Assembly (NCBI GenBank): GCA_945859975.1
Contig: CAMAPH010000030.1
Coordinates: 1 to 37,172, forward strand
Source: Chthonomonas calidirosea
GTDB taxonomy: Bacteria; Armatimonadota; Fimbriimonadia; Fimbriimonadales; Fimbriimonadaceae
Direction of reading: 5' to 3'
DNA length: 37,172 nt
The notes under the pieces are model-generated. The model had not been told where the DNA came from, searched no databases, and was given only the letters and a program-made list of their open reading frames with translations. A program made the translations under genes and the position numbers. Below are positions 3,141-23,584 of this stretch, piece by piece (position 1 is the stretch's first letter; the number at the start of each line of letters is the position of its first letter).

Positions 3141-3740
3141 ATGGAAGTTCGAGCAGTTGCAAAATTTATCCGGGTACAGCCACGAAAAGTCCGGCTCGTT
3201 GCCCGCGAAGTCCGAGGAGCGCCCGCTGCGCTCGCGGCCCACAAGCTTCGATTCCACCCAAGCAAGGGTGCGAAGGCTCTGCACAAGGTTCTGGTTTCGG
3301 CCATGGCCAACGCCCAGGAGAATCACGGCATTAGCCCTGACTTGCTCCGCATTTCGAACATTGCTGTAGACGAAGGTCCGCACATGAAGCGAATGCAGGC
3401 CCGCGCAATGGGTCGAGGCAATCGAATCCTTAAGAAGACCAGCCACATCACCGTGACGGTTGAGGATTACGATGGCGAGCAGACCGTTAAGCCGCACGGC
3501 ACCAAGGCCAAGCCGCGACCAACTCTGGCCGGCAAGCGTGGCAAGAAGGGATCTGCACCAGCAGCTCCAGAAGCGGCCGCCCCAGTAGCCGAAGTGGTTG
3601 AGGAAGTCACAACGCCGGAAATCACCAGCGAGGAAGTCACCGAAGTTGTGGAGTCCGTCGAAGTGACGCAAGCCGCCGCTGAAACTGAAGCCGCCGCAGA
3701 AGCCACCCCGGCACCGACCGAAGAAGGAGAGAACAAGTAA
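3141..3740 (+). CDS. rplV: 50S ribosomal protein L22 with long C-terminal extension
   Basis: PRKVRLVA, SAMANA, ARAMGRGNRILKKTSHITV; followed by ~90 aa basic then Glu/Ala/Thr-rich tail. Confidence 0.97.
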   Translation: MEVRAVAKFIRVQPRKVRLVAREVRGAPAALAAHKLRFHPSKGAKALHKVLVSAMANAQENHGISPDLLRISNIAVDEGPHMKRMQARAMGRGNRILKKTSHITVTVEDYDGEQTVKPHGTKAKPRPTLAGKRGKKGSAPAAPEAAAPVAEVVEEVTTPEITSEEVTEVVESVEVTQAAAETEAAAEATPAPTEEGENK

Positions 3741-4555
3741 TGGGTCAGAAAATCCATCCAGTCGGCCTTCGCGTCGGCGTAATTCGTGGTTTCGATTCGA
3801 ACTGGTACTACGGAAAGAAAGGCTACGCAGCCGCCCTTCTGCAGGACCACCGAATCCGTGAGTTCATCAAGATGCGAACCGGTCTTGGCATCGTTAGCCG
3901 AGTTGAGATCGAGCGAGCAGCCAATCGAGTTAAGGTGAACGTATTCACTTCTCGCCCAGGTGCCATCATCGGCCGCGGCGGGAAGGGAATCGACGAGCTT
4001 TCCTATATCCTGAACAAGCTGGTCCGCCAAGGCGACCCAACGAGCATGGTTCAGGTGAACGTTACGGAAGTTCGCCAGCCAGAACTCGACGCTCAGCTGG
4101 TTGCAGAGAACATCGCTGCTCAGCTTGAAAAGCGAGTCAGCCACCGACGAGCCATGCGACAGGCCATGACCCGAGTCACCCGAATGAACGGACGAGGAAT
4201 CAAGGTTCTCATCTCCGGTCGATTGAACGGTTCGGAAATTGCACGATCGGAAGGCGACAAGCTCGGAAAGATTCCACTCCACACGATTCGAGCCGATATT
4301 GATTACGGCCTTGCCGTCGCAAAGACCATCTACGGAACGGTCGGAGTTAAGGTTTGGATCTACAAGGGTGAAGTTCTTCCGGAGCGACGCATGCGAGAGC
4401 TTGCTGAAGGTCCACGTGAAGAGCGACGCGAACGACGACCACGGCGCGAAGACGGAGATCGAGAGCGACGACCGTTCTCGCGAACCCGAGACGAGAACGC
4501 GCCAGCCCAAGACCAAGGAGCAGCACCGGCTGCAAATCCTGGAGGTGAAGCCTAA
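3740..4555 (+). CDS. rpsC: 30S ribosomal protein S3
   Basis: [25 protein letters not shown] motif, [21 protein letters not shown]. Confidence 0.99.
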
Positions 4556-5184
4556 TGTTAATGCCAAAGCGAGTTAAAGGTAACCGACGAAAGATGCACC
4601 GAGGACGCATGTGCGGCCGGGCAAATCGCGGTAACACCATCGCCTTCGGCGATTACGCGATAGTGTCGCAGGATCCACAGTGGGTCACCAGCCGACAGAT
4701 CGAAGCCGCTCGAATTGCCATGACCCGCCACATCAAGCGAGGCGGAAAAGTCTGGATTCGAATCTTCCCAGATAAGTCCTACACCAAGAAGCCACTCGAA
4801 ACCCGAATGGGTAAGGGTAAGGCGCCGATCGAAGGCTGGGTAGCCGTCGTGAAGCCAGGCCGAGTCCTGTTCGAAATGGCGGGCCCTCCGCTTGAAGTGG
4901 CGAAGGAAGCCATGCGACTTGCGATCTTCAAGCTGCCAATGCGCTGTAAGTTCATGACCAAAGCCGACATGGCGAAGGACTTGGCAATGCGCGGCGGACA
5001 GCGGACCCTGAAGGCAGTGAAGACGGCGGAAGTCGTTGAAGCTGAACCCCTAGGACTCGAAGTGACCGACGTGAACGTAACCGAAACCACCGCGTTCCCG
5101 ACCGAAATCTTGGAAGCCGTAGAAGCTACGGAAGCCATGGAAACGGTTGAATCGACGGAAACCACGGAGACCACCGAAGAATGA
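4555..5184 (+). CDS. rplP: 50S ribosomal protein L16 with acidic C-terminal extension
   Basis: [30 protein letters not shown]; ~70 aa extra C-terminal tail. Confidence 0.98.
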
Positions 5185-7293: not shown

Positions 7294-7806
7294 ATGTCGC
7301 TAGTTTTCCAGGCCATGCACGCCGTCTCCGGCCTCTTTGCGCGGGCGAAGCGTTCGGAGGATGTTGTCAATGCCTTCCTGCAGAACGAGCGGCCTTGGAT
7401 GTATCGACTCGCGCTCAGCATCACCCAGCGGCCAGACTTGGCCGAGGACGTCGTGCAGGAGACCCTGATTCGATGCTGGCGATCGACCAAGAAGCTGACC
7501 ACGGTCAATGATCTTAAGGCTTGGTGTCGTCAGGTTCTGGTCCGAAGAGCCATCACGGCCCTAAAGGCCCAGGATTCAAGCGAACTGCCAGACATTGAGG
7601 TCCCAAGTCAAGTTGACCGGCAAGTGAGTGTTCGCTTAGTACTGGAGTCTCTCCCGACAGAATCACGCGCCATTCTGGCTCTGTCCTACTTTGAAGGTCT
7701 GTCCTACCAAGAGATTTCCGATACGCTCGAAATTCCAGCAGGGACCGTCGCCAGCCGGCTCAACACAGCCCGAGAAAGATTCCGCGATGCTTGGGAGGCG
7801 AAATGA
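7294..7806 (+). CDS. ECF (sigma-24 family) RNA polymerase sigma factor
   Basis: Region 2 AEDVVQETLIRCW, region 4 LSYFEGLSYQEISDTLEIPAGTVASRLNTAR. Confidence 0.93.
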   Translation: MSLVFQAMHAVSGLFARAKRSEDVVNAFLQNERPWMYRLALSITQRPDLAEDVVQETLIRCWRSTKKLTTVNDLKAWCRQVLVRRAITALKAQDSSELPDIEVPSQVDRQVSVRLVLESLPTESRAILALSYFEGLSYQEISDTLEIPAGTVASRLNTARERFRDAWEAK

Positions 7807-8069
7807 AAGATCCGCTAGAGCAATTCTACGAGCAGTTTCACGACGCCGAAGTGCCAGCTCGATTGGTGCACATTGATGTTCCCATGCTTGAAAAGCGCCG
7901 AACGGTACGAGAACTTTCCGTATGGATGACGGCTTTCGTTCTTACGTGGGTGTGTACAAGCGCACCAACCTGGACCGCCGTTTCCGTTCAGCCCACCTTC
8001 GCCTGGACCTCAGTTCTGAGCCGACAACTTGAGCCGATGGCATCACTTGAGGCGGAGGTAGGGAAGTGA
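7803..8069 (+). CDS. Small single-TM protein, probable anti-sigma factor
   Basis: ATGA overlap with ECF stop; 88 aa; one hydrophobic stretch (SVWMTAFVLTWVC); position is typical of anti-sigma genes. Confidence 0.6.
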   Translation: MKDPLEQFYEQFHDAEVPARLVHIDVPMLEKRRTVRELSVWMTAFVLTWVCTSAPTWTAVSVQPTFAWTSVLSRQLEPMASLEAEVGK

Positions 8070-9712
8070 AGCTGTCCGAAAAAGACTGGTTGCGCTACTC
8101 GCTTATCGCCGCTTTGGCCGTGTTTCTTGCGGTGTGCCTGAATCCGAGTTCGACTTGGATCATTCGACGGACAGCGGCGGTTCTGCGAGGGGAGTTTTCA
8201 GTGTTAGAGGAGACCTTTGCGTCGAGCCAACTCTTAATCCGGCGAGAACTATCAGCGAAGTTTGCAAATTTCACCCGTCGAGGAAACGGTGGATTTGAAT
8301 CGCTAGAGCGCACGGCAAACTTAATGAGCAAGACGGATGATCCCGTGGCCGATGGCATCTTTGCCCGGAACGGCGCCGGGGACTTGGCCGCGATGTTCGG
8401 GAAAACAGAGCGCCAGATTCCCGGCCAGTTACGGGAGCGGTTAGTTAAGGAATTTGATTCAGCGGCCGAGAAGGCCCCCGACAACATGCTGTTTCCATTA
8501 CTCGCAATGTTCGCGTTTGAGGGGGCATCCGACACCGACAGAATGAATCAGTATCGAAAGCTTGCCGCAAGCCGAACCAGCTACACCAGCTACGTTCAAC
8601 CCGAAGCCGAGCGAAACTGGCAGACGTACTTAAAACGGCATTCGTACGATGGGGAAGCCGCAAGGATCTTCGCCTATTACGGAATTGCTTTGCCGCATCT
8701 GTCGCTGTTGCGCCAAGTCGAACAGCTCCAATTGAAAGGAGCCCCACGAAGCGATCCGCGTCGGGTCGAGTGGTTAGCTATTGCGCATCGAATTTACGCC
8801 GACGCTGACACGACGATTGAGATTCTCGTTGACGTCACGGCGATGGACATTGCAATTGCCGTAGATCCTTCAACGTCCAATCCGATCGGTCCGCTGGACA
8901 AGCGGCTTCCGTATCTTCGCGAGCAGGCAGCCAAATTCAAAGTTGTTCATCCAGAGGCCGCGTACATGGTTGACGATCTGATGAAGGCTAAGCACGGACT
9001 CAATAGCGGTCGAGTCACCCCGTTCGAGACAAATCCACTTGGACTGCCGTTGACACCAGCAGGAATGGCGGCGGCTGTTCTGCTCATTGTTGTAGCCGTC
9101 GCAGGGTTGATACGAACCTTCGTCGAACGCGCGAAGGGACTAGAACCATCCCTCAACCTTGCCCCTTACGCGATCATTGCGGGGTATCTGCTCATCCGTT
9201 CCGGAATGGAGAATTTCACCGAGGCGCTACTTTGGACTGGCGTGGTTCTCCTAGCCCCGGCAATCTTAGCCGCGACGATTCCGCACCCCAGGGCAGCTGG
9301 CTACGTCGCACTGGGAACAGGTGTTCTCTTTCTACTCGGCGGTCCGGCGCTTGGGCAAATTGGCGACGTCTGGATCATCTCGGGCTTTTTGTTAGCGATG
9401 TCCTTTGTTCCGCTCCTCAAGCACCTGATTCTTCCCGGTGCCGTGGTCACGCTTTCATTCGGGCTTGTCGTTACCTCCCTTGCGCTGCAACCGAACTTCG
9501 GACCGCTAGTTGCGCTTGGGTGGCTCATGGTGGTCTCCTTACCAATGCAGCATCTGAAAACGCGAACCCTGGCCGCGCTCATCGCCGGGGCGGCGATTCT
9601 CTTCATCGCTGGGGTTGTGGTGCAGGTGTCAGAAAACGAAAGGCTTCGAGCAAACACGGACTTGTTCGCCGAGGAAGTAATAGAAATGCGCCGGGCGATA
9701 AATCCTTCATGA
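8066..9712 (+). CDS. Hypothetical polytopic membrane protein
   Basis: 548 aa; N-terminal TM, ~300 aa soluble helical region, then about 7 hydrophobic segments; GTGA overlap with upstream gene. Confidence 0.8.
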   Translation: MKLSEKDWLRYSLIAALAVFLAVCLNPSSTWIIRRTAAVLRGEFSVLEETFASSQLLIRRELSAKFANFTRRGNGGFESLERTANLMSKTDDPVADGIFARNGAGDLAAMFGKTERQIPGQLRERLVKEFDSAAEKAPDNMLFPLLAMFAFEGASDTDRMNQYRKLAASRTSYTSYVQPEAERNWQTYLKRHSYDGEAARIFAYYGIALPHLSLLRQVEQLQLKGAPRSDPRRVEWLAIAHRIYADADTTIEILVDVTAMDIAIAVDPSTSNPIGPLDKRLPYLREQAAKFKVVHPEAAYMVDDLMKAKHGLNSGRVTPFETNPLGLPLTPAGMAAAVLLIVVAVAGLIRTFVERAKGLEPSLNLAPYAIIAGYLLIRSGMENFTEALLWTGVVLLAPAILAATIPHPRAAGYVALGTGVLFLLGGPALGQIGDVWIISGFLLAMSFVPLLKHLILPGAVVTLSFGLVVTSLALQPNFGPLVALGWLMVVSLPMQHLKTRTLAALIAGAAILFIAGVVVQVSENERLRANTDLFAEEVIEMRRAINPS

Positions 9713-9895: not shown

Positions 9896-10741
9896 ATGGG
9901 TCGCAAAACCGGCTTCACCCTCATCGAACTCCTCGTTGTTATCGCAATCATCGCCATCCTGGCGGCGATCCTATTCCCCGTGTTTGCGCAAGCCAAAAAC
10001 GCCGCCAAGAAGACGGCGAGTTTGTCGAACGTTAAACAAATAGGGACCGCGACCGTTTTGTACGTTGGAGATTACGATGATGTGATCGTTCCGCTGCGCT
10101 GGCTCAGCTTCAATCCTGCGGAGCCGTTGGCGACCCAGTATCCGACCGCTTGTCAGGGCGGAGCATGCTTTTTCTTCTATCCCGTTCTGTTCCAACCCTA
10201 CACGAAAAACACAGACCTGTTCCTTTGCCCAGCCGACAGAAACGAGGATGCAACGCAAGCCGACAGCCAAGGGCGAGGTCGACTGAATAAGCAATCGTCT
10301 TTGTATTGGTACAACACCGGCTTCTCGCCCAGCTACGGCATGAATGCCGAGTACCTCAACACCGTCAGCGTGTCGGGCTTTGGCACGAAGTCGTACGCAG
10401 GGAAGTCAGCTACCAGCTTCGAGTCGCCTTCTCAAACCGTTGTATTCGCCGAAGCGACTGCCAAGGACACTGGTTCTCCTGGTCGGCCTGGCCCAACGAT
10501 CGACGTCGGCTTCCACCGCATCGTGCCACCAAGCGGAGCTTCGTCCCCGTCTGCGGCTTGGGTCAGCTTCACTTATCCCAATGCCGCAAGCCAAGGTCAG
10601 CTCTGGGGCCGGTTCCAGCGAGATAAGGTGCTGATTAGCTGGCTCGATGGCCATGTGTCGTACCCAGCCATTCGAAGCTTAGTGGGCACAAACGAGAGCA
10701 CAGAATCCCTCGACCGAGCTTTCAACGGTCGAGGGTTCTAA
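9896..10741 (+). CDS. Prepilin-type N-terminal cleavage/methylation protein (DUF1559/H-X9-DG-like)
   Basis: G^[24 protein letters not shown] class III signal; SNVKQIG..YVGDYDD; C-terminal WLDGHV. Confidence 0.93.
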
Positions 10742-10743
10742 AC

Positions 10744-12099
10744 TCAGCGGCGAACGCGCTGCAGCAAACTTTGGAGCCGGCTTCGGCGAGAGTTTGCTGC
10801 GGCGCTAGGGCTATCGAAGGTGTAGGCGGTCACCATCAAAAACATCTCATCGTTCGTTTCCTCACCCCAGGTCACTCGCTTTGGCGGGTTGTTTGGGTTG
10901 TGAGGATTGTCGGAAGAGTTGTCATAGGTCGCTTCGACAATTTGCTTCGTGCCTTTGGGCAGCTTTAAGGGTTCCTTGAGGGAATAGTTGAGCTGCCAGT
11001 TGAAGTCCCAGTCGTCGACGTGAACGAGCGGTTTCACCGTGCCGTCTGGCAGTTCGAACCATGATTTCATGTCCCGTCCGAGGAGGTGCATGTGCGGCAT
11101 GGTTTGGTGAATCGTCACGTCTTCTCGATAGACGTACTCTTTGCGCATCTTGTAAGCTTTTTCGCCTGCCGGAATGTTCACGGCGAAGTTGAACAACCAG
11201 TTCAACTTCATTTCTCGCTCGGGAGCTTCTTTCGCAAAGTACAGAGCGACGCGGGTCTTGTCGGTTTCGGGTTTGCCAGATTTGTGATAGTGGACCTGCA
11301 TCACCAGCCGGGTACCGGGATTGATCCGATAGGCCGTGCCCTCGTTGAGATAGGTTGCCCGAATGCCGGGCGCCCATCCGCCGAGCGATCCGCTTGGGAT
11401 GAAGCCAACTCCGCCTCCTTGGCCGATGTAACCCGGCTGCCCGTCCGTTGTCCCGGCCACAAGCTTGTCTGATGCTCCACGCTCGTCGAGGAACATGATG
11501 ACGTGGTGGACAACTTTGCTGTTACCTGGCTTTACGTCAATGGCACGTACAAATCGAGGTTCGGCAAAGTTGGTTGGAATGACGAAGTTTCGGTAAACAT
11601 CTTCGCCTTCTGGAGCAAGGTTGTAGGCTCGCTCGGGCTCGATGATCGTGTCCGGCTTGCCGAGCGTCCATTCACCGCCGCTAAACGTTGGCGGTTTTGG
11701 TTCCTTTTCTTTCGCACCCCGAGGTGCACCTTGATCTGCCCAAACTTTCAGCGTCGCGATCTCGGTTTCGGAAAGGCGGTTCTCGTGCTTAAACGAACCG
11801 TAGCCTTCCTTCGCTTTCCACGGCGGCATCCGGCGTGAGCCGGTCGTCGCGGCAATCATTTGAGACCACTTCTTGGCATCTTCAAACTTAACCAACGAAA
11901 ACGGACCAACTTCACCGGGGCGATGGCATTCGACGCAGCGATCGTTAATGATCTTGGCAACGTCGGTCGCATAGGTCGGCTTCGCCGGAACCTTTATCGC
12001 TGGCTTCGAGCTCTTTGGCGAGTCGGCTTTTGCGCCAGAAGAAACCACCCCGATGGTAGTCACCGTGGTTACAGCAAAGATGGCAAAGGTCCAGTTCAT
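10744..12099 (-). CDS. Secreted c-type heme + copper type II ascorbate-dependent monooxygenase-like protein
   Basis: Signal peptide; CVECH heme motif; VVHHVI, QVHYH, PHMH and DEM motifs resembling PHM/DBH copper ligands. Confidence 0.85.
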   Translation of the reverse strand: MNWTFAIFAVTTVTTIGVVSSGAKADSPKSSKPAIKVPAKPTYATDVAKIINDRCVECHRPGEVGPFSLVKFEDAKKWSQMIAATTGSRRMPPWKAKEGYGSFKHENRLSETEIATLKVWADQGAPRGAKEKEPKPPTFSGGEWTLGKPDTIIEPERAYNLAPEGEDVYRNFVIPTNFAEPRFVRAIDVKPGNSKVVHHVIMFLDERGASDKLVAGTTDGQPGYIGQGGGVGFIPSGSLGGWAPGIRATYLNEGTAYRINPGTRLVMQVHYHKSGKPETDKTRVALYFAKEAPEREMKLNWLFNFAVNIPAGEKAYKMRKEYVYREDVTIHQTMPHMHLLGRDMKSWFELPDGTVKPLVHVDDWDFNWQLNYSLKEPLKLPKGTKQIVEATYDNSSDNPHNPNNPPKRVTWGEETNDEMFLMVTAYTFDSPSAAANSRRSRLQSLLQRVRR

Positions 12100-17334: not shown

Positions 17335-18176
17335 TGCCAGAACTGCCAGAAGTTGAGTCAGTCCGGCGCCTGATGGCGTCGGCACTGATCGGGCAGCGAT
17401 TGATCGACGTGGAAGTGGTGCCGGACGAAATCGTCTGCTCGGGTCACTCGACGGAAGAAGTTGATGCTGCCCTGCGCAATCGGGTTGTTACCGGAGTTCA
17501 TCGTCGCGGCAAGTTCTTCTGGCTTACTTTCGATTCGCCACCGGTGGTCTTCGGCCACCTCGGAATGGCGGGTTGGATTAGAGAAGTCGGCGCCGATTCG
17601 CTTCGACTTCATTCGCATGGGGAAGCTCCGATGGACGAGGAAAATGGCCGTCCGAGGTTCCTGAAGCTCCTCATGAAAGCCGAGAACGGTCGGCAGATTG
17701 CCTTCACCGATTCCCGCCGCTTCGCCCGAATATGGCTCGGCGAATCCGCCGAAACCAACGATCGCGTGAAGAAGCTTGGCCCAGACGCTTTCAACGAAGC
17801 ACTATCCGTCGCTGACTTTACGAAGGCGATCCAAAAGCGAAAGGCACCGATCAAGGCGATTCTTCTTGATCAGTCTCTCATGAGCGGAATCGGAAACTGG
17901 ATCGCGGACGAGGTGTTGTATCACGCAAGAATCAATCCGGCGAGGATCGGAACGAGCATCTCGGACTCGGAATCGGAGCGACTTCATGCATCTATTGCCT
18001 ACGTCCTTGACCTTGCGGTAAACGTGGAAGCGGACTACACCAAGTTCCCAGAGAACTGGCTGTTCCATCACCGCTGGGGTGGCAAAAAAGGGGCAGACTT
18101 GATCGAAGGTCGAGAAATTCAGCGCGACACCGTTGGAGGGCGAACAACTGCATGGGTTCCCGCAATTCAGCTTTAA
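17334..18176 (+). CDS. mutM: Fpg/Nei family DNA glycosylase/AP lyase (zincless-finger type)
   Basis: MPELPEVE, RRGKF, HLGMAG, D.RRFARI, LGPD, H2TH GIGNWIADEVL; C-terminus has no Cys4. Confidence 0.92.
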   Translation: MPELPEVESVRRLMASALIGQRLIDVEVVPDEIVCSGHSTEEVDAALRNRVVTGVHRRGKFFWLTFDSPPVVFGHLGMAGWIREVGADSLRLHSHGEAPMDEENGRPRFLKLLMKAENGRQIAFTDSRRFARIWLGESAETNDRVKKLGPDAFNEALSVADFTKAIQKRKAPIKAILLDQSLMSGIGNWIADEVLYHARINPARIGTSISDSESERLHASIAYVLDLAVNVEADYTKFPENWLFHHRWGGKKGADLIEGREIQRDTVGGRTTAWVPAIQL

Positions 18177-18631
18177 CCATCAGAGCTGCCGAACTCTCCG
18201 AAATGGATGAGGTTCGCCAACTTTTTCGCGAGTACCAAACCGAGCTCAACGTCGATCTCTGTTTCCAGTCATTCGAAGAAGAGCTTGATTCGCTTCCGGA
18301 AAAATACGCGCCGCCCAAAGGCCAGTTACTGCTCGGAATGGTTGATGGCACCATACAAGGATGTGTGGCGTTCCGTAGCCTGGACGCAGGCGTTTGCGAA
18401 ATGAAGCGGCTCTTCGTCCGGCCAGCCGCACGTTCAGCTGGCTTGGGAAGACGGCTTGTCGCCGAGATACTGTCGCATGCAAAGAGTGCCGGCTACGAGT
18501 CGATGGTGCTCGATACCCTCGATCGTCTTCACTCGGCGCGACTGCTGTATGAACGCGCAGGCTTCGTCGAGGTTCCGGCGTACTACGAGAACCCACTAGA
18601 AGGCGTGATTTTCTTGCAGCGAAAACTCTAG
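18152..18631 (+). CDS. GNAT family N-acetyltransferase
   Basis: DLCFQSFEEEL..LP..Y, CEMKRLFVRP..R..GLG, LYERAGF. Confidence 0.9.
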   Translation: MGSRNSALTIRAAELSEMDEVRQLFREYQTELNVDLCFQSFEEELDSLPEKYAPPKGQLLLGMVDGTIQGCVAFRSLDAGVCEMKRLFVRPAARSAGLGRRLVAEILSHAKSAGYESMVLDTLDRLHSARLLYERAGFVEVPAYYENPLEGVIFLQRKL

Positions 18632-18636
18632 GCCGC

Positions 18637-18664
18637 TTGCAGGTCGTCCTTTCAGTGTTATTCT
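18637..18664 (+). promoter_or_regulatory. Putative extended -10 promoter for the tandem 445-aa genes
   Basis: TTGCAG(18637-18642)-16 nt-TATTCT(18659-18664) with TG at 18656-18657. Confidence 0.5.
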
Positions 18665-18680
18665 GTTACGCAGACCAGCC

Positions 18681-20018
18681 ATGAAGAACCTTCTGACTCG
18701 CGCAAGCATCGTGTCCAGTATCGCCCTTGTTGCCGCTTCAGCGATGGCTCAGCCGTTCACGCAAAGTTCAATTGCCGGAAATGACAAAGCATGGATGCTA
18801 CTCAGCCCGAAATTTGTGGCAGATGGTGAGTGTACGGATCTGGGTTGGTCGTCCGATGGACGATTCCTGCTTGTTAACCGTTCGCGGATGGAGCTGACAA
18901 CGAAGTACATCCAGCAGATTTTCTCAAAATCGTCTGCGCCGCAAGAACCGCCACCAAGCCTTGGAGAGATCGTCACCTTCTCGATGGAAACGGGCAAGTC
19001 CAGGGTGATCTATAAGTACGACGCATCCTTGTTTCGCGCCGAGAGTAAGTGGCTTGGCACAGGAAGCGCGGTCATTTTCTCCTTGCAATCCAATTTGACG
19101 TCGCTTATCAGCGTGTTTGTCAGCACGGCCGATGGAGATGTTAAGCAATTGAACTTAGGCGAAAAGGTCAACCTGATCCAGTACTTCCCATCACCCACGC
19201 GGGCTGAGATGGTGATTCAATTACACAGTGAGTCAGATGGAATGACCGTTCAACGGGTGAACTCGTCGGGTCCGGTCGGCCGAACCTTAAAAACCGCGAG
19301 CGGAAGCGAACCAGTTGCTTACCTGAAGAACGGGAACGAGATTCTCTTTGCTGGCATGCGCCGAACAACTGGACCACTCTCGTCTGACGGCAAAACTAGA
19401 GAAGCCGAAGCCTTCTTTGAAGCCGTTAATGTTCAGACAGGTGCAACACGGCCCGCGACGAAATCGGAGTACGACGCAGCCTACGACGGCGAAGAGCCGC
19501 AACTGGCACTTGATGAAAAGCCGGTTCAAGTCGATTCAAAGCTGAAGCCGCTGACATCCGCAATTTTTCGGTCTGCGGATGAACTCGTGCTGATTGCCGC
19601 CGATGTGTCCCTGGTAAAGCCAAACCGACAACTCACCGGCGTGGCCTACGTCTCTCAGGGCACGATATTTGTTCGACCGATTGCGGAGGTGCCACTCGCA
19701 GCCTTCCTAGATGCTAAGGACGCAGCGGAGCGAACTAAGATCATCAGTAATGCAAAGCAGGTCGCTTTAGGACTTATCATTTATGCAGCTGATAACGATG
19801 ACAACTTGCCTTCAAATCAGGGAAAGTGGCAGGATTCGATCTTCCCGTACCTCAAAGACCGAAACACGATGGACGGGTTTGTTTTAGCATTTAAGGGAGG
19901 GAGTATTTTAAAGGTAGAAGACCCTTCCAAAACGATCATGGGATACATTCCGGGGAAGGGTGGTCGAGCCGTTGCTTACGTAGACGGTCACGTGAGGTGG
20001 ATCAAAGATGGCAACTAG
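18681..20018 (+). CDS. Secreted protein: propeller-like N-region + C-terminal pilin-like (DUF1559/H-X9-DG-like) domain, paralog 1
   Basis: Signal peptide ending AMA; WSSDGRFLL TolB/WD40-like motif; SNAKQVALGLIIYAADNDDNLP and AYVDGHV. Confidence 0.8.
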   Translation: MKNLLTRASIVSSIALVAASAMAQPFTQSSIAGNDKAWMLLSPKFVADGECTDLGWSSDGRFLLVNRSRMELTTKYIQQIFSKSSAPQEPPPSLGEIVTFSMETGKSRVIYKYDASLFRAESKWLGTGSAVIFSLQSNLTSLISVFVSTADGDVKQLNLGEKVNLIQYFPSPTRAEMVIQLHSESDGMTVQRVNSSGPVGRTLKTASGSEPVAYLKNGNEILFAGMRRTTGPLSSDGKTREAEAFFEAVNVQTGATRPATKSEYDAAYDGEEPQLALDEKPVQVDSKLKPLTSAIFRSADELVLIAADVSLVKPNRQLTGVAYVSQGTIFVRPIAEVPLAAFLDAKDAAERTKIISNAKQVALGLIIYAADNDDNLPSNQGKWQDSIFPYLKDRNTMDGFVLAFKGGSILKVEDPSKTIMGYIPGKGGRAVAYVDGHVRWIKDGN

Positions 20019-21345
20019 AGCGTCCGCCGCGCTTTTGGCGTTAATTCCGCTGCTTGCCTTTGGCCAGACTCGGTCTCAAAATTCCGTCAACTGGATCCTT
20101 CCGGTCAAGGACAAAGCGCTGTTTTTCATGCCCGCCAAGTTCGTTTCGGAAGGGGAAGTCCGCGAGATGTTTTGGTCGCGGGACGGAAAGTATCTCCTTG
20201 TGAATCGTACGTCTCAAGCCGTAACCCCCGAGATTCTGGAAGCGCAGTTTAAGCCATCGGCAAGTGGGGTCTCCATGCCGAAACTGGTAGGCGAGATCCT
20301 TGTATGGAATTCGGTAACGGCAACAACTCGCAGCATCAAGAAGTACGATGCCGAGACGACTCAAGTCAGTGCTCGATGGCTTGGCAATGCGAACTCGGTT
20401 ACGTTTACGTTCACCTCACAAAAGGCTCGCACTGTTCAACTGTTCTCTAGTACCGCTGATGGTTCTGTGCGAGAACTGCCTCCGTTTCTGGATAGCATCG
20501 AGAGCACCATTTCTCCCCTAACAAATTCCGCCGAGGCTCTACTAACGCTGAGAGGTGTCGATGGTCTGGAAACGGTGCGAAAGTTCAACGTGTCGCTTCA
20601 GTTTGGCCCAGTCCTCAACCGCTCCACCGAGCAGTTCAAGAAGTTCCTTGCAAGCTCAAATGAAGTCGTTGTCAGCCCACTGGTACCGACGGACGAGAAG
20701 GGCAAGCCAGTGAGCTCCGTGCCAACGTATCGCGGGATCAATGCGGCAACCGGACAGGGCCGGTCCTTGACCGAAGCCGAAGTCAATCCGCCAGTTGAAC
20801 CTGAGGTGCCGTTAAAGGAGCCCAAAGATCCCACGCTAGTCAGCTCGGACATGTCATTCAGTCTGACCGGAGGCGCAACGCGGATCGTTTTGATCAAAGC
20901 GGAAAAGGAATCCGTCCTTGTCAGTGGTGACGCGACGATGGCTTTGGCTAATGATCAGTTGACGGCAGTCGCCTTCCAAACGCAGGGAGTGATCCTCGTC
21001 CGACCGATTGCGACGGTTCCCCTCGCGATGTTCGAATCTGCGAAAGTGGAAGCCGAGAAATCCAAACTGATGACCCAAGCCAAGGAACTCGTAAAGGGTT
21101 TCGGATATTACGCCCAAGATCATCACGACACGCTTCCGGGGCCCGGTGGAAACTGGAAGTCAGAGCTCCAACCGTACATGCTTCATGCGGGCCTGCTCGA
21201 GGGGTTCGTGCTCGCTTTCGAGGGTGGGGTCGTTAGCTCGGTCGAGAAGCCCGGCGAAACGGTGCTGGGTTACGTCTACGGGCGAAACGGCAGAGTAGCC
21301 GCCTATCTCGATGGCAGCGTGCGGTGGATTCCGAACGGCAAGTAA
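20008..21345 (+). CDS. Secreted protein: propeller-like N-region + C-terminal pilin-like domain, paralog 2
   Basis: Signal peptide; WSRDGKYLL; colinear similarity to paralog 1 (DKA..PKFV..GE, QG.I.VRPIA.VPLA.F, GFVLAF.GG, AYLDGSVRWI). Confidence 0.8.
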   Translation: MATRASAALLALIPLLAFGQTRSQNSVNWILPVKDKALFFMPAKFVSEGEVREMFWSRDGKYLLVNRTSQAVTPEILEAQFKPSASGVSMPKLVGEILVWNSVTATTRSIKKYDAETTQVSARWLGNANSVTFTFTSQKARTVQLFSSTADGSVRELPPFLDSIESTISPLTNSAEALLTLRGVDGLETVRKFNVSLQFGPVLNRSTEQFKKFLASSNEVVVSPLVPTDEKGKPVSSVPTYRGINAATGQGRSLTEAEVNPPVEPEVPLKEPKDPTLVSSDMSFSLTGGATRIVLIKAEKESVLVSGDATMALANDQLTAVAFQTQGVILVRPIATVPLAMFESAKVEAEKSKLMTQAKELVKGFGYYAQDHHDTLPGPGGNWKSELQPYMLHAGLLEGFVLAFEGGVVSSVEKPGETVLGYVYGRNGRVAAYLDGSVRWIPNGK

Positions 21346-21354
21346 CCTAGCAAC

Positions 21355-22197
21355 ATGGTTGAAGGCCGCTGGGACTTAACGATTCATGACGTCAAAGGTG
21401 ACTACCCAAGTTGGGTGGATCTTTCTCCGCAGGAGGGCTGGTTTGTCGGACGGTTTGGAAGCGCTCGCCCAATCCCGACGATCTCCCTCACCGAAAACTC
21501 CGTAGAATGGGCCCTTCCGAAGCAGTACGAAGGTCGAGAAACGGATCTGCAGTTCACCGGAACGCTCACCGAAGATGGCATTTCCGGCACAACGACGAAC
21601 GACAGTGGTGAAGTGGTTCAGTGGTCCGGTCGAAAAGCTCCCGCACTCCCGTCAACGGATAGTCCCGTCTGGGGTGAGGTCGTCTCGCTGGTCCAATCGG
21701 ACCTCAGCCACTGGCACCCACGAAGCCCAGAATGGACGAACCAGTGGAGCATCACCGCAAATGGTCTCGAGAACGCAGGCGTCGGAACCGACCTGATCAC
21801 CCGAAACACCTTTGGTGACTTCCGACTGGTGGCCGAGTACCGGTACCCGAAGGGTAGCAACTCTGGCATCTATCTTCGCGGGAGATACGAGTTCCAAATC
21901 CTCGACGATCACGGACACGAGCCAACCGTCGGAAGCAGCGCCGCGATCTACGGATTCCTTATCCCGAGCGAGAACGCCGTTCATGCGCACGACGAGTGGA
22001 ACACCGCCGAGGTCACGCTGCTCGGTCGGTTCATTACGGTCGTGCTAAATGGCAAAACCGTCATCGAGAACGCGGAAATTCCCGGCATTACGGGTGGCGC
22101 CCTGGAGTCCCGAGAAGACCTGCCCGGCCCTCTCTTTGTTCAGGGAGATCACGGTCCTGTGACCTTCCGAAAACTGGACCTGTATCCGAGAATCTAG
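21355..22197 (+). CDS. DUF1080 (3-keto-disaccharide hydrolase-like) protein
   Basis: FGDFRL..EY, NSGIYLRGRYEFQILD, EWN, GPLFVQGDHGPVTFR. Confidence 0.88.
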   Translation: MVEGRWDLTIHDVKGDYPSWVDLSPQEGWFVGRFGSARPIPTISLTENSVEWALPKQYEGRETDLQFTGTLTEDGISGTTTNDSGEVVQWSGRKAPALPSTDSPVWGEVVSLVQSDLSHWHPRSPEWTNQWSITANGLENAGVGTDLITRNTFGDFRLVAEYRYPKGSNSGIYLRGRYEFQILDDHGHEPTVGSSAAIYGFLIPSENAVHAHDEWNTAEVTLLGRFITVVLNGKTVIENAEIPGITGGALESREDLPGPLFVQGDHGPVTFRKLDLYPRI

Positions 22198-22198
22198 G

Positions 22199-23584
22199 CT
22201 AGAACGCGGGGGACCACAGGTCCTCCGCGTCGCTCTCGTCTTCGGAAAGCAGTAGACCGGGCGCCGCGCTGACCGGCGCGGAAGGGCGCTCGATGGGAAC
22301 TCCCGTCGTCGCCTTTTCTTCCAGATGGAGCTCCTTGGCTCGATCCTCTGCACCAGGAGAAACGGGCCAAACCGTACCGGCCGCCCAGTAACTTTCCAAA
22401 AACTCCGCCCACACGCGCTCGTAAACCGCAATCGTCTGGGTAGCCAGATTCGCCCAGGAAAAGTCCGTCGAGAGCCGATCCTTGGCTTGCTCCCTAATCT
22501 TCGCCGCCCGTTCAGGGTCTTGCAGAACCCGCGACACACCCCAAGCGAGGGAAGCGGTGTCTCCGGCGAACGTTGTAGTTCCGGTCAAATCATGGCTAAC
22601 CACTTCGGGAAGTCCACCCGCGTCGGAGCAAACTACCGACGTTCCAGCCGCCATCGCCTCAAGCGCGACAATCCCAAAAGGTTCGTAAAGCGAAGGGAAC
22701 ACCGCAACGTCGGCACAGCGATACAGTTCCAGTAGCTTTCGCCCAGAGATAAATCCGGTGAAGTGGATTCGAGATCGCAATCCGGACCAATCCACGAAGC
22801 CTTCAAACTTCTCGCGATTACCGCCGCCGGCGATCACAAAGCGAGTGTTCGGCTCGGCCGCTAGGATCGCGTGGGCAGAGTTCAGCAGAACCTGAATGCC
22901 TTTCTCTCGCACAAATCGGCCGACGTAAAGCACGATCTTCTCGTCCGGTGCCGCATATTGCTCCCGGGCCGCGAGCCGTTCGGCTTCGGTCCAATCGAAC
23001 TTGAACTTGTCCGCATTTACGCCGTTAAAGATGACGTCCGTCTTTTCCCACGGACAGTTGAACGTGCGGTGAACTTCACCGCGCATGAACTCGGAGCAGA
23101 TGATCACGCGCCAGGCTTCGTAAGTGAGCCAGTACTCCTGGTCGTGGATGTAGCGGGAAACGTTGTTGTGAATTCCGCCATGTCGACCGGTCTCCGTAGC
23201 GTGGACCGTCGCCACCATTGGAAGCTTGTATTCGTACTTCAGCTCCCGGGCTGAATCAAGCGAAAGCCAGTCGTGGGCATGAAAGATGGTTGGTTGTCCG
23301 CCGGGTCGCCAGTCTTCTAGCAGCTGCCGAACCCGCAAGTCGGTTGCTTGGTTCAGAAGCTGGATTTCGTGCAGAAAGTCGTTCGGCGTTCCGGAGAGCT
23401 CGACTCGGTGGACATGCACACCGGAAGCTTCCGTCTCTTCGTTGGGGGCATTGGGCGTCGCCTTGGTGACAACGTGGACCTCAACGCCTTGCTTGACCAG
23501 TTCTTGCGAAAGCTCGTAGACGTGCGGGCTGATGCCTCCCACAATCCGAGGCGGGTATTCCCAAGAGAGCATCATCACGCGCAT
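22199..23584 (-). CDS. Glycosyltransferase family 4
   Basis: MRVMMLSWEYPP..VGG, HAHDW, YVGRFVREKG, PSLYEPFGIVALEAMA; ATG 23584 preferred over 23635. Confidence 0.93.
   Translation of the reverse strand: MRVMMLSWEYPPRIVGGISPHVYELSQELVKQGVEVHVVTKATPNAPNEETEASGVHVHRVELSGTPNDFLHEIQLLNQATDLRVRQLLEDWRPGGQPTIFHAHDWLSLDSARELKYEYKLPMVATVHATETGRHGGIHNNVSRYIHDQEYWLTYEAWRVIICSEFMRGEVHRTFNCPWEKTDVIFNGVNADKFKFDWTEAERLAAREQYAAPDEKIVLYVGRFVREKGIQVLLNSAHAILAAEPNTRFVIAGGGNREKFEGFVDWSGLRSRIHFTGFISGRKLLELYRCADVAVFPSLYEPFGIVALEAMAAGTSVVCSDAGGLPEVVSHDLTGTTTFAGDTASLAWGVSRVLQDPERAAKIREQAKDRLSTDFSWANLATQTIAVYERVWAEFLESYWAAGTVWPVSPGAEDRAKELHLEEKATTGVPIERPSAPVSAAPGLLLSEDESDAEDLWSPAF

Follow-up and report, generated by a model that had tools for sequence, protein, structure and literature searches.

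The tandem pair and its surroundings

Near the middle of a 37,172-nt stretch of DNA from Chthonomonas calidirosea (contig CAMAPH010000030.1; hereafter the window) lie two genes that the original prediction described as overlapping, well-diverged paralogs of equal length, and this description is borne out (Table 1). The start of ORF2 and the stop of ORF1 share 11 nt, and the two 445-aa proteins align over 418 aa at 34% identity (E 2e-79), with 30% identity in the propeller-like domains and 44% in the C-terminal modules. The pair was also said to stand behind an extended -10 promoter, and of this the string TGTTATTCT is indeed present; together with TTGCAG at 18637-18642, 16 nt upstream, it agrees weakly with the consensus (8 of 12 positions, counted by hand), but a sigma-70 scan of positions 18000-22600 placed no site on the + strand; the two sites that it did return, where 1.4 would be expected, are on the - strand.

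Table 1. Coordinates in the window of the tandem pair, the parts of its products and the other features discussed
Feature	Positions	Strand	Remark or basis
TGTTATTCT, the 'extended -10' string	18656..18664	+	string present, putative
ORF1, first tandem copy	18681..20018	+	445 aa
ORF1 putative Sec signal peptide, aa 1-23	18681..18749	+	ends AMA then Q; cleavage site inferred
ORF1 beta-propeller-like domain, aa ~30-338	18768..19694	+	AlphaFold2 model, Foldseek, ESM Atlas
ORF1 C-terminal leaderless pilin-head module, aa 339-445	19695..20015	+	hhalign, BLASTP, model
ORF2, second, more diverged tandem copy	20008..21345	+	445 aa
ORF2 putative Sec signal peptide, aa 1-19	20008..20064	+	ends AFG then Q; inferred
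ORF2 propeller-like domain, aa ~30-338	20095..21021	+	comparison with ORF1 domain
ORF2 C-terminal module, aa 339-445	21022..21342	+	comparison with ORF1 module
DUF1080 (3-keto-disaccharide hydrolase) gene	21355..22197	+	9 nt past the ORF2 stop
Prepilin-type protein (N_methyl + DUF1559/SBP_bac_10)	9896..10741	+	281 aa; comparison protein

The DUF1080 gene that follows the pair may be co-transcribed with it; its product has no obvious signal peptide, and among the loci fetched for comparison (given here as L numbers) it adjoins the pair only in L001 and L002. Apart from the protein encoded at 9896 (the window pilin), no ORF in the window is prepilin-like, and neither Pfam nor the neighbouring genes pointed to any pilus or secretion genes there. 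A 548-aa ORF (8066-9712) that separates the window pilin from an ECF sigma gene was considered as an anti-sigma factor and set aside, as it has no Pfam match and looks like a polytopic membrane protein.

The N-termini of both ORF1 and ORF2 appear Sec-like by eye, with a basic n-region, a hydrophobic core and AMA or AFG ahead of Q, and in the model of ORF1 the pLDDT falls below 50 at aa 1-5 and 12-26. Neither protein matches the N_methyl models (PF07963, TIGR02532), on which the window pilin scores 33.4 bits, and a prepilin motif within the first 70 aa is found in 0 of 159 family proteins, 127 of which have an N-terminal hydrophobic stretch. The earlier call of a Sec-type rather than a prepilin signal agrees with these findings, and both proteins are presumably exported by Sec.

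Homology of the C-terminal module to prepilin heads

In ORF1, the C-terminal module is made up of a long helix (aa 339-371), two short helices and a three-stranded sheet, and ends in AYVDGHVRW, while in ORF2 TQAKE replaces SNAKQ and DGSV replaces DGHV. The model of the module (pLDDT 95.3) has its long helix at residues 9-41, then the short helices, and strands at 89-95, 98-103 and 108-112, and this succession of helix, loop and three-strand sheet is the order expected of a pilin. The helix had been likened from the outset to that of the window pilin, a similarity that stands for ORF1, where aa 342-374 and pilin residues 30-62 are identical at 14 of 33 positions (BLASTP E 1e-6), but not for ORF2 alone, which gave nothing significant against the window pilin by BLASTP (best E 0.74).

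Such a resemblance could in principle be chance, or the convergence of an amphipathic helix, in which case the C-terminus would be unrelated to pilins. The BLASTP result for ORF2 speaks for this, as do the library models: Pfam DUF1559 (PF07596; gathering score 23.3 bits) matches neither ORF1 nor ORF2 at E<=0.1 and, with the threshold relaxed to E<=1, picks up 5 of 23 family members (lowest E 0.0083), and TIGR04294 covers only its profile positions 11-22 of 22 and scores 13.8 and 15.3 bits (the latter for ORF2) against a cut-off of 19, with 12 of 23 members matched at E<=1 (lowest E 0.0048). The end motif claimed to be shared with the pilin is therefore present, in that DGHV matches TIGR04294, but it remains below that model's cut-off. 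Foldseek adds to this side of the argument, since among solved structures the module model found no significant pilin match, with no PDB match at E<=0.001 and the best pilin (5vxx_A) at rank 19 with E 2.3 and TM 0.33, so that assignment of a pilin fold rests on sequence homology and the order of secondary structure.

However, profile comparisons argue strongly against coincidence. Alignment by hhalign of 53 modules with 40 relatives of the window pilin, the prepilin alignment having been collected independently, gave 98.4% and E 5.9e-15 over 56 columns, and sets the module helix against pilin residues 29 onward, past the hydrophobic segment; in ORF1, what comes before helix 339-371 is not a hydrophobic alpha1-N but beta strands belonging to the propeller-like domain. 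When the family HMM was run against 6036 ORFs from the window and the fetched loci (which were fetched by a ...DGHV.W pattern and are thus enriched for the DGHV.W motif), the 121 matches comprised 58 full-length members, 40 prepilins and 23 others; in all 40 prepilins (E 1e-7 to 1e-17; the window pilin at E 5.7e-8) the matched helix has the leader within the 45 aa before it, and 29 of them give a second, collinear match at the DGHV end. Furthermore, a leader-bearing compact prepilin in L051 aligns in a single piece to HMM positions 346-448, leaderless DUF1559 proteins of L043 and L060 do so over the full length of the module, and in a profile search of the PDB the top matches of the module are type IV pilins (the best, PilE1 8pfb, at a marginal E of 0.061). 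Homology of the last ~105 aa to the head of DUF1559-type prepilins is supported by these sequence comparisons, and I regard coincidence as close to refuted.

The original claim that the last ~100 aa mirror the pilin head needs one correction, in that the two are homologous but the module is minimal, ~105 aa as against the ~250-aa head encoded at 9896. Like the DUF1559 prepilins, the family has the SN.KQ...Y..D.DD helix, PY.K(N/D) and the C-terminal ..Y.DGHV.W strand in the same order; unlike them, it is devoid of a class III leader and of a hydrophobic alpha1-N (0/159), and its head is short (prepilin heads have ~200-250 aa) and has a ~300-aa propeller-like domain in front. It also departs from H-X9-DG proteins, as both library models stay below cut-off and the His nine residues before DG occurs in 0 of the 154 members that have DG in their last 40 aa, where Gly takes its place in 116 and DG is followed by H in 131.

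The propeller-like domain, the pair and the family

The beta-rich middle region that had been predicted is evident in the full-length AlphaFold2 model of ORF1 (pLDDT 83.1), which has ~25 strands between aa 30 and 338, but WS.DG..L is not the repeat motif it was taken for, as it occurs once per protein at aa 56-63 (WSSDGRFL being the sole instance in ORF1). With the full ORF1 model, Foldseek returned WD40 G-beta, TolB (7mx5, E 1.1e-6) and the S9-type propeller of a lasso-peptide isopeptidase, at E ~1e-7 and probability 1.00 with a TM of only 0.2-0.3, and the ESM Atlas neighbours of the propeller region are PD40/DPPIV_N propellers (TM 0.39-0.45), mostly those of S9 peptidases. Sequence libraries were less forthcoming: Pfam (E<=0.1) and NCBIfam gave no match above cut-off for ORF1 or ORF2, Pfam PD40 matched one of 23 family members (E 0.092), and the best E of phmmer with ORF1 against PDB sequences was a meaningless 1.7. 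On the strength of the models, aa ~30-338 are predicted to form a propeller-like domain of the PD40/WD40 class.

Periplasmic propellers of the TolB, PD40 and DPP-IV kind are similar in their PD40-like WS.DG..L motif, in being the Foldseek and Atlas neighbours, in Sec export and in housekeeping neighbourhoods. TolB itself carries its small domain at the N-terminus, whereas the small alpha/beta domain of ORF1 and ORF2 is C-terminal and apparently pilin-derived; in addition, PD40 is matched in only 1/23 members, TM values span 0.2-0.45 and no tol-pal genes were seen nearby.

Since the structural neighbours are mostly S9 peptidase propellers, one may imagine catalysis or metal binding as the task of this small module, with its conserved polar set (K-Q on the helix, Y..D.DD, PY.K and DGH) forming the active or metal site and the propeller offering it a substrate in the manner of propeller-gated S9 peptidases. 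The module does contain invariant or near-invariant polar residues (K359, Q360, D371, Y390, T418, R429, D435 and H437), and the motifs K-Q, D.DD, PY.K and DGH are also conserved in prepilins. However, K359, Q360, D371, Y390, D435 and H437 could be purely structural, the His of DGH is lost from ORF2 and other second copies (DGSV, DGTV), and no enzyme family was matched in Pfam, NCBIfam or the PDB, all of which makes a catalytic or metal-binding role very improbable in my view.

The family is large. An exhaustive profile search found it in 818 50%-identity cluster representatives at E<=1e-30, almost only in Armatimonadota records, with 14,669 matches at E<=1e-3, and the best 150 matches listed all begin at or before profile position 74 and all reach at least position 444 of 449; the 22 relatives returned by a word-indexed homologue search are a large undercount by comparison. 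The propeller is fast-evolving and the module conserved, with mean pairwise identities of 24.6% and 50.1%, respectively, over 253 pairs. In a quick tree that kept all 58 full-length matches, including the fragment L028_119_682, tandem copies group within lineages, on which ground an ancient A/B paralog pair was rejected, and ORF2 forms one clade with its orthologues in L001 and L002 (support 100); the pair thus appears to be a lineage-specific tandem duplicate, and duplication seems to have recurred within lineages. Neither Pfam nor NCBIfam contains a family that combines a propeller with a leaderless pilin head, and no description of this architecture was found in the literature searched on DUF1559, on H-X9-DG, on Armatimonadota prepilins or pilins and on pilin-like propeller proteins of Planctomycetes, in line with the earlier impression that it had not been described.

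Prediction of an ORF1-ORF2 complex gave an ipSAE of 0.76 (best of three controls 0.00), a mark that 116 of 157 solved complexes attain, as do 2 of 215 mismatched pairs, rates that apply only roughly here because own alignments were used. At least 82% of contacts recur between runs, partner pLDDT is at least 83, and each chain contributes the same stretches to the interface (residues 39-49, 72-83, 282-308 and 319-345), so that the two proteins are predicted to pair through their first and last propeller strands with both modules left free. The score expresses the confidence of a model and is no measurement. Paralogs may owe such a score to a homodimer interface inherited from their ancestor, and the interface predicted here is probably of that kind.

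A prepilin-type head without leader or alpha1-N

The DUF1559/H-X9-DG proteins (PF07596, TIGR04294) of Planctomycetota, Verrucomicrobiota and Armatimonadota form large paralogous families that are among the largest in these phyla, and no DUF1559 protein is known to have a ligand or partner. One report gives the family as of unknown function and counts, in one planctomycete, 68 DUF1559/H-X9-DG paralogs, two of them essential (PMC10632474). The search for other domains fused to the module, suggested with the original prediction, proved fruitful, as the leaderless module is found behind zf-HC2 anti-sigma domains (L047, L066), behind a BlaR1 peptidase M56 (L074), behind DUF3352 (L049, L060) and ahead of a thioredoxin domain (L048), and L045 and L064 have it twice in tandem; of the 16 proteins of this kind, 6 match Pfam SBP_bac_10 at or above the cut-off. 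This shows that nature employs the DUF1559 head in the absence of the helix that builds filaments, in a family of propeller proteins spanning the Armatimonadota as well as in other proteins.

From established knowledge of pilins, prepilin peptidase processing needs the class III leader and the filament core needs alpha1-N, so a module with neither can be neither processed by the peptidase nor polymerised into the core of a pilus or pseudopilus, and its occurrence on anti-sigma, BlaR1-type, DUF3352 and thioredoxin proteins suggests to me a binding domain that is soluble and extracytoplasmic. My working interpretation, to which I would give an even chance, is that the pair encodes Sec-exported propeller-like proteins in which a minimal DUF1559 head plays this part: Sec would export each ~450-aa protein; the module, as a minimal DUF1559-type prepilin head (the alpha1-C helix, a short PY.K loop and a small antiparallel sheet with DGHV at its end), would bind the same ligand or partner as the heads of DUF1559 proteins; the variable propeller would provide a second, diversifying surface; and the paired propeller edges would leave both modules free. 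Its use without the filament helix recasts the DUF1559 head as a free-standing extracytoplasmic module, and the ~105 aa offer a soluble, well-predicted construct (pLDDT 95.3) for structure determination and for ligand or partner fishing.

It is also conceivable, although unlikely, that the module mimics a pseudopilin, which is the strongest version of the tip adhesin, cargo or sorting role proposed originally, and serves either to dock the protein on the tip of a type II secretion or type IV (pseudo)pilus or to mark it as cargo. The module is, after all, homologous to the heads of that machinery's own clients, and a conserved tail on a variable head fits a docking or sorting module. In the sister lineages L008 and L009, moreover, the family gene closes a row of type II secretion genes, which in L009 runs on one strand through gspG, gspH, a third N_methyl gene, gspK, PilN-like, PilO/T2SSM-like, secretin and LTXXQ genes (L008 has the order secretin-LTXXQ-family gene in common), and an alignment of the module to the GspG of L009 is in register, the module sharing with GspG/PulG the helix, W...PY, a short aromatic strand and a Gly-rich turn in the same order. 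Yet this alignment is weak and not significant (hhalign 18%, E 0.0013), the module has neither the leader nor a T2SSG Pfam match, and the linkage is confined to 2 of 44 loci within one lineage; in L010, a GspG homologue lies 9.4 kb off on the opposite strand.

In 42 loci, where a ±2-gene scan covered 150 of 154 neighbours, the adjacent genes are mostly housekeeping; they differ between lineages, no conserved partner gene turned up, and clusters of neighbours are common only within lineages. Against a pseudopilin mimic also stand the missing alpha1-N, which rules out canonical incorporation into a filament, and the occurrence of the module on inner-membrane-anchored anti-sigma and BlaR1-type proteins, which could not be cargo. 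In addition, HMM-matching prepilin genes lie within the fetched flanks of 8 of 44 loci, and a cultured Fimbriimonas relative is reported to have 79 PulG-type genes in 5.23 Mb, of which 14 lack the methylation motif (PMC4072686), so that a pilin 9 kb from the pair is not informative. The more specific proposal, that a leaderless DUF1559 head allows the type II pseudopilus or a tip to recognise Sec-exported proteins for export or surface display, I consider improbable; if it were true, the leaderless head would be a defined, transferable and folded signal for type II secretion or docking, which is rare for that system, and recognition by the type II system would account for the strong conservation and large number of DUF1559 heads.

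Two known kinds of protein help to place the architecture. The PilY1/PilC tip adhesins, which function with pilins, are likewise large, Sec-exported, non-pilin beta-propeller proteins; however, the propeller of PilY1 is C-terminal, PilY1 is not known to have a pilin-like domain, and the genes reside in minor-pilin operons, whereas here the propeller is N-terminal, gives no Pfam match (E<=0.1) and has no minor-pilin operon nearby. The modular pilins of Streptococcus sanguinis also unite a pilin module and an unrelated globular domain in a single chain, but their pilin module is N-terminal, keeps the leader and alpha1-N, and polymerises. In ORF1 and ORF2 it is the extra domain that is N-terminal, and, much as the original prediction proposed, the Sec-like N-terminus and propeller-like domain stand ahead of a homologous head in exactly the place of the pilin leader and hydrophobic helix.

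The tandem pair and its family

ORF1 and ORF2 are each exactly 445 aa, the start codon of ORF2 lies 11 nt within the ORF1 gene at GATCAAAGATGGCAACTAG, and the two proteins share 34% identity over 418 residues (E 2e-79), which bears out the original prediction of overlapping, well-diverged paralogs. An extended -10 promoter had also been claimed for the pair, and the string TGTTATTCT is indeed present at 18656-18664, but a sigma-70 scan of 18000-22600 returned no + strand site, and a promoter at this position is a guess; the claimed WS.DG..L repeat is withdrawn, since the exact motif occurs once per protein (aa 56-63) and is therefore not a repeat. Both N-termini open with a few basic residues, continue into a hydrophobic core and end at a site of small residues (AMA then Q in ORF1, AFG then Q in ORF2); they are putative Sec signals from which Sec export is predicted. 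An N-terminal hydrophobic stretch is found in 127 of 159 family proteins and the prepilin motif in none of the 159, as expected of the non-prepilin signal proposed earlier.

The window genes are largely housekeeping and no pilus or secretion machinery was found among them; at protein level the window shares 98% identity with L001, a chromosome labelled Fimbriimonadaceae bacterium. The called ribosomal ORFs L22, S3 and L16 carry C-terminal tails of 60-90 aa past their Pfam domains, and the 451-aa ORF has weak matches, all below cut-off, to cbb3-type cytochrome c (E 9.6e-5) and to the two halves of copper type II ascorbate-dependent monooxygenase (E 6.5e-5 for the C-terminal and 0.058 for the N-terminal domain).

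Features of the window and of the fetched relative loci (L numbers) discussed in the text
Record	Position	Feature	Remarks
Window	3141-3740	L22 ORF	199 aa, Pfam domain aa 5-108
Window	3740-4555	S3 ORF	271 aa, domains end at aa 207
Window	4555-5184	L16 ORF	209 aa, domain aa 10-134
Window		Ribosomal protein operon
Window	7294-7806	ECF sigma factor
Window	8066-9712	548-aa ORF	No Pfam match; looks like a polytopic membrane protein
Window	9896-10741 (+)	Prepilin	Only prepilin of the window
Window	10744-12099 (-)	451-aa ORF
Window	Directly upstream of pair	Fpg, GNAT acetyltransferase
Window	18681-20018 (+)	ORF1
Window	20008-21345 (+)	ORF2
Window	9 nt downstream of pair	DUF1080/3-keto-disaccharide hydrolase	Then GT4 glycosyltransferase
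Window		Ffh, DNA ligase, Lhr-type helicase	Further genes
L008	6-5480	Secretin, LTXXQ (Spy/CpxP-like), family gene	Same strand
L009	61-11302	gspG, gspH, third N_methyl gene, unassigned ORF, gspK, PilN-like, PilO/T2SSM-like, unassigned ORF, secretin, LTXXQ, family gene	One strand
L047	928-1722	N-terminal zf-HC2 anti-sigma domain, degenerate pilin-like membrane helix, module	Armatimonadia MAG contig
L066	5540-6418	As L047	Armatimonadia MAG contig
L074	8864-10468	BlaR1-type peptidase M56 (E 6.4e-37), module	Armatimonadetes MAG contig; leaderless module is the C-terminal extracytoplasmic domain
L049, L060		DUF3352, module	A Verrucomicrobiota and a Brocadiia record
L045	268-1626	Signal peptide, unassigned domain (~170 aa), two tandem modules	One chain
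L064	194-1543	As L045	One chain
L048		Module, then thioredoxin
L044, L052, L058		Other large proteins with module

Neither protein matches Pfam at E<=0.1, and in NCBIfam only TIGR04294 (H-X9-DG C-terminal domain) appears, below cut-off. A word-indexed search gave 22 relatives, and a profile search run exhaustively over 1.84 billion representatives gave 818 matches at E<=1e-30, rising to 1562 at E<=1e-10, the best 150 being 382-508 aa long and spanning the profile from position 74 or earlier to at least 444 of 449. Run on contigs taken from one genome per species, the family HMM recovered 58 full-length members at 44 loci (window counted), all labelled Armatimonadota except L002, labelled only 'bacterium', and L022 (JADZEW010000028.1), labelled a Methanoregulaceae archaeon. 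In the tree, the L022 family protein and the L023 copy are close sisters, and because the neighbours (GT4, FeoB and others) match those of two Fimbriimonadaceae loci, L016 and L023, this contig is probably mis-binned. The family is nearly restricted to Armatimonadota records.

A propeller-like domain followed by a pilin-like module

In support of the beta-propeller-like region originally proposed, the AlphaFold2 model of ORF1 (23 family sequences; pLDDT 83.1, pTM 0.70) places about 25 strands in aa 30-338, with Foldseek neighbours in the PDB that include WD40 G-beta subunits, TolB (7mx5), the lasso-peptide isopeptidase propeller and oligogalacturonate lyase (E about 1e-7, TM only 0.2-0.3), and the ESM Atlas, working from a model of its own, lists PD40/DPPIV_N/S9-peptidase propellers as structural neighbours (TM 0.39-0.45). 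Low as these TM-scores are, I accept the domain as a predicted propeller-like one of the PD40/WD40 class.

The module model (pLDDT 95.3) consists of a helix of 33 residues, two further, short ones and three antiparallel strands, the last being the DGHV strand. ORF1 aa 342-374 match aa 30-62 of the window pilin at E 1e-6, but ORF2 alone gives no significant BLASTP match to it; at the family level, hhalign of 53 modules (DNA references from the window and loci) against 40 relatives of the window pilin, gathered independently of the modules, gives 98.4% (E 5.9e-15) and pairs SNAKQVALGLIIYAADNDD with a 19-residue prepilin stretch and PYLKD with PYTKN. Of the 6036 ORFs in the loci and window taken together, 121 match the family HMM: 58 are family members, 40 are prepilins and 23 belong to neither group; all 40 prepilin matches begin within 45 aa after the leader motif, a second, collinear match at the DGHV end is reported in 29 of them, and a compact leader-bearing prepilin in L051 aligns in a single piece to HMM positions 346-448. 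That such a resemblance should have arisen by chance is barely credible. Searched with the module profile, PDB sequences give type IV pilins as best matches, albeit marginal ones (PilE1 8pfb, E 0.061), and Foldseek with the module model gave no significant match, its first pilin ranking 19th at TM 0.33. Pfam DUF1559 matches only 5 of 23 family members at E<=1 and TIGR04294 matches 12 of 23, all below cut-off. The pilin-like character predicted for the last ~100 aa hence stands for ORF1 and for the family, but not for ORF2 taken alone or at library cut-offs, and I conclude from these alignments that the module is homologous to prepilin heads, as a reduced form of the DUF1559-type head with a putative pilin fold, formally outside Pfam DUF1559 and TIGR04294. 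The His of the H-X9-DG domain is missing in all 154 family members with DG. A catalytic or metal site in the module seems very unlikely.

The module helix begins where pilin alpha1-C begins, directly behind a beta strand belonging to the propeller-like domain, and has neither a hydrophobic helix nor a cleavage motif ahead of it, so that the propeller does stand in place of the hydrophobic pilin helix, as first supposed, and the filament-forming parts are absent from this architecture. In type IV filaments, a protein without leader and hydrophobic helix is neither a prepilin peptidase substrate nor a helical-core subunit. The module would be a soluble binding domain for the ligand or partner of DUF1559 heads, a reading in which my confidence is evenly balanced.

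Neighbouring genes, duplication and predicted pairing

The original prediction was that the module may dock a tip adhesin or cargo on (pseudo)pilus tips, or act as a sorting tag, and a conserved tail behind a variable head speaks for this (mean family identity 50.1% in aa 339-445 vs 24.6% in aa 30-338; 253 pairs), as does a type II secretion linkage in one lineage. No neighbour recurs from one family lineage to another, and the two genes on either side at 42 loci (150 of 154 neighbours scanned) are for the most part housekeeping ones (anthranilate synthase, DUF192, 2-hydroxyacid dehydrogenase, P-II, KdsB-type cytidylyltransferase, RelA/SpoT, CoaBC, DAHP synthase, FeoB). The one exception is this linkage in the sister lineages L008 and L009, where LTXXQ and the family gene come after a compact run of type II secretion genes; phmmer with the L009 row proteins picked up the secretin block in L008 alone and, in L010, a GspG homologue at a distance of 9.4 kb. 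Flanking prepilins that match the family HMM occur at 8 of the 44 loci, and such proximity is expected by chance because a cultured Fimbriimonas is reported to have 79 PulG-type genes (65 with a methylation motif) in 5.23 Mb (PMC4072686). Docking or sorting I consider unlikely, and the soluble binding domain remains the preferred reading.

Two or three tandem full-length copies occur in 13 of the 44 loci, several with overlapping stop and start codons, and in a quick tree built with IQ-TREE from all 58 rows (SH-aLRT support only) they mostly cluster within their own lineage, the duplication behind the window pair being shared with no loci but L001 and L002 (support 98 for the clade of six). 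This grouping argues that the pair reflects a recent, recurrent kind of event, and an ancient two-component system was therefore rejected. Second copies tend to degrade the motif, which suggests relaxed or altered constraint: ORF2 has TQAKE for SNAKQ and DGSV for DGHV. In the downstream copies of the window, L001, L002, L027, L029 and L031, the most conserved module residues are repeatedly lost, DGHV giving way to DGSV, DGTV, DTSA or DSHA and SNAKQ to TQAKE.

Mature ORF1 and ORF2 are predicted to bind each other as a dimer, with a complex score of 0.76 (best of three controls 0.00). Of 157 solved complexes 116 attain the mark for such scores, as do 2 of 215 mismatched pairs; these counts apply only approximately here, since the prediction used alignments of my own. 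Contact agreement between runs is at least 82% and partner pLDDT at least 83, and the predicted interface uses the same residues of both chains (39-49, 72-83, 282-308, 319-345), that is, the first and last propeller-like strands plus the opening turn of the long helix, with no other part of the module named in it. Because close cousins can pass the complex test, what is predicted here may be the interface of an ancestral homodimer.

The module on other architectures

Propellers and DUF1559-type heads are both of a known kind; their combination, and the leaderless use of the head on many architectures, are absent from the protein family libraries searched (Pfam, NCBIfam) and not described in the available text of the literature searched. 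The search for other fused domains found several proteins in which what precedes the module is not a prepilin leader, and since these loci were chosen by the ...DGHV.W motif, the table gives examples, not frequencies; Pfam SBP_bac_10 is at or above cut-off in 6 of 16 module proteins scanned. Such arrangements show the head to be a portable extracytoplasmic domain, including on proteins of membrane-sensor architecture.

In the anti-sigma-type proteins of L047 and L066 the membrane helix resembles an uncleaved, degenerate prepilin alpha1-N (..FSIVEALILLFVVVV..FPVFAR..) and the C-terminal DUF1559 head ends HNGG...DGHVKW, so that a whole pilin would in effect provide both the membrane span and the sensor of an anti-sigma factor. 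In the two-module proteins of L045 and L064, both modules come with a helix and an HNGG...DGHV end of their own.
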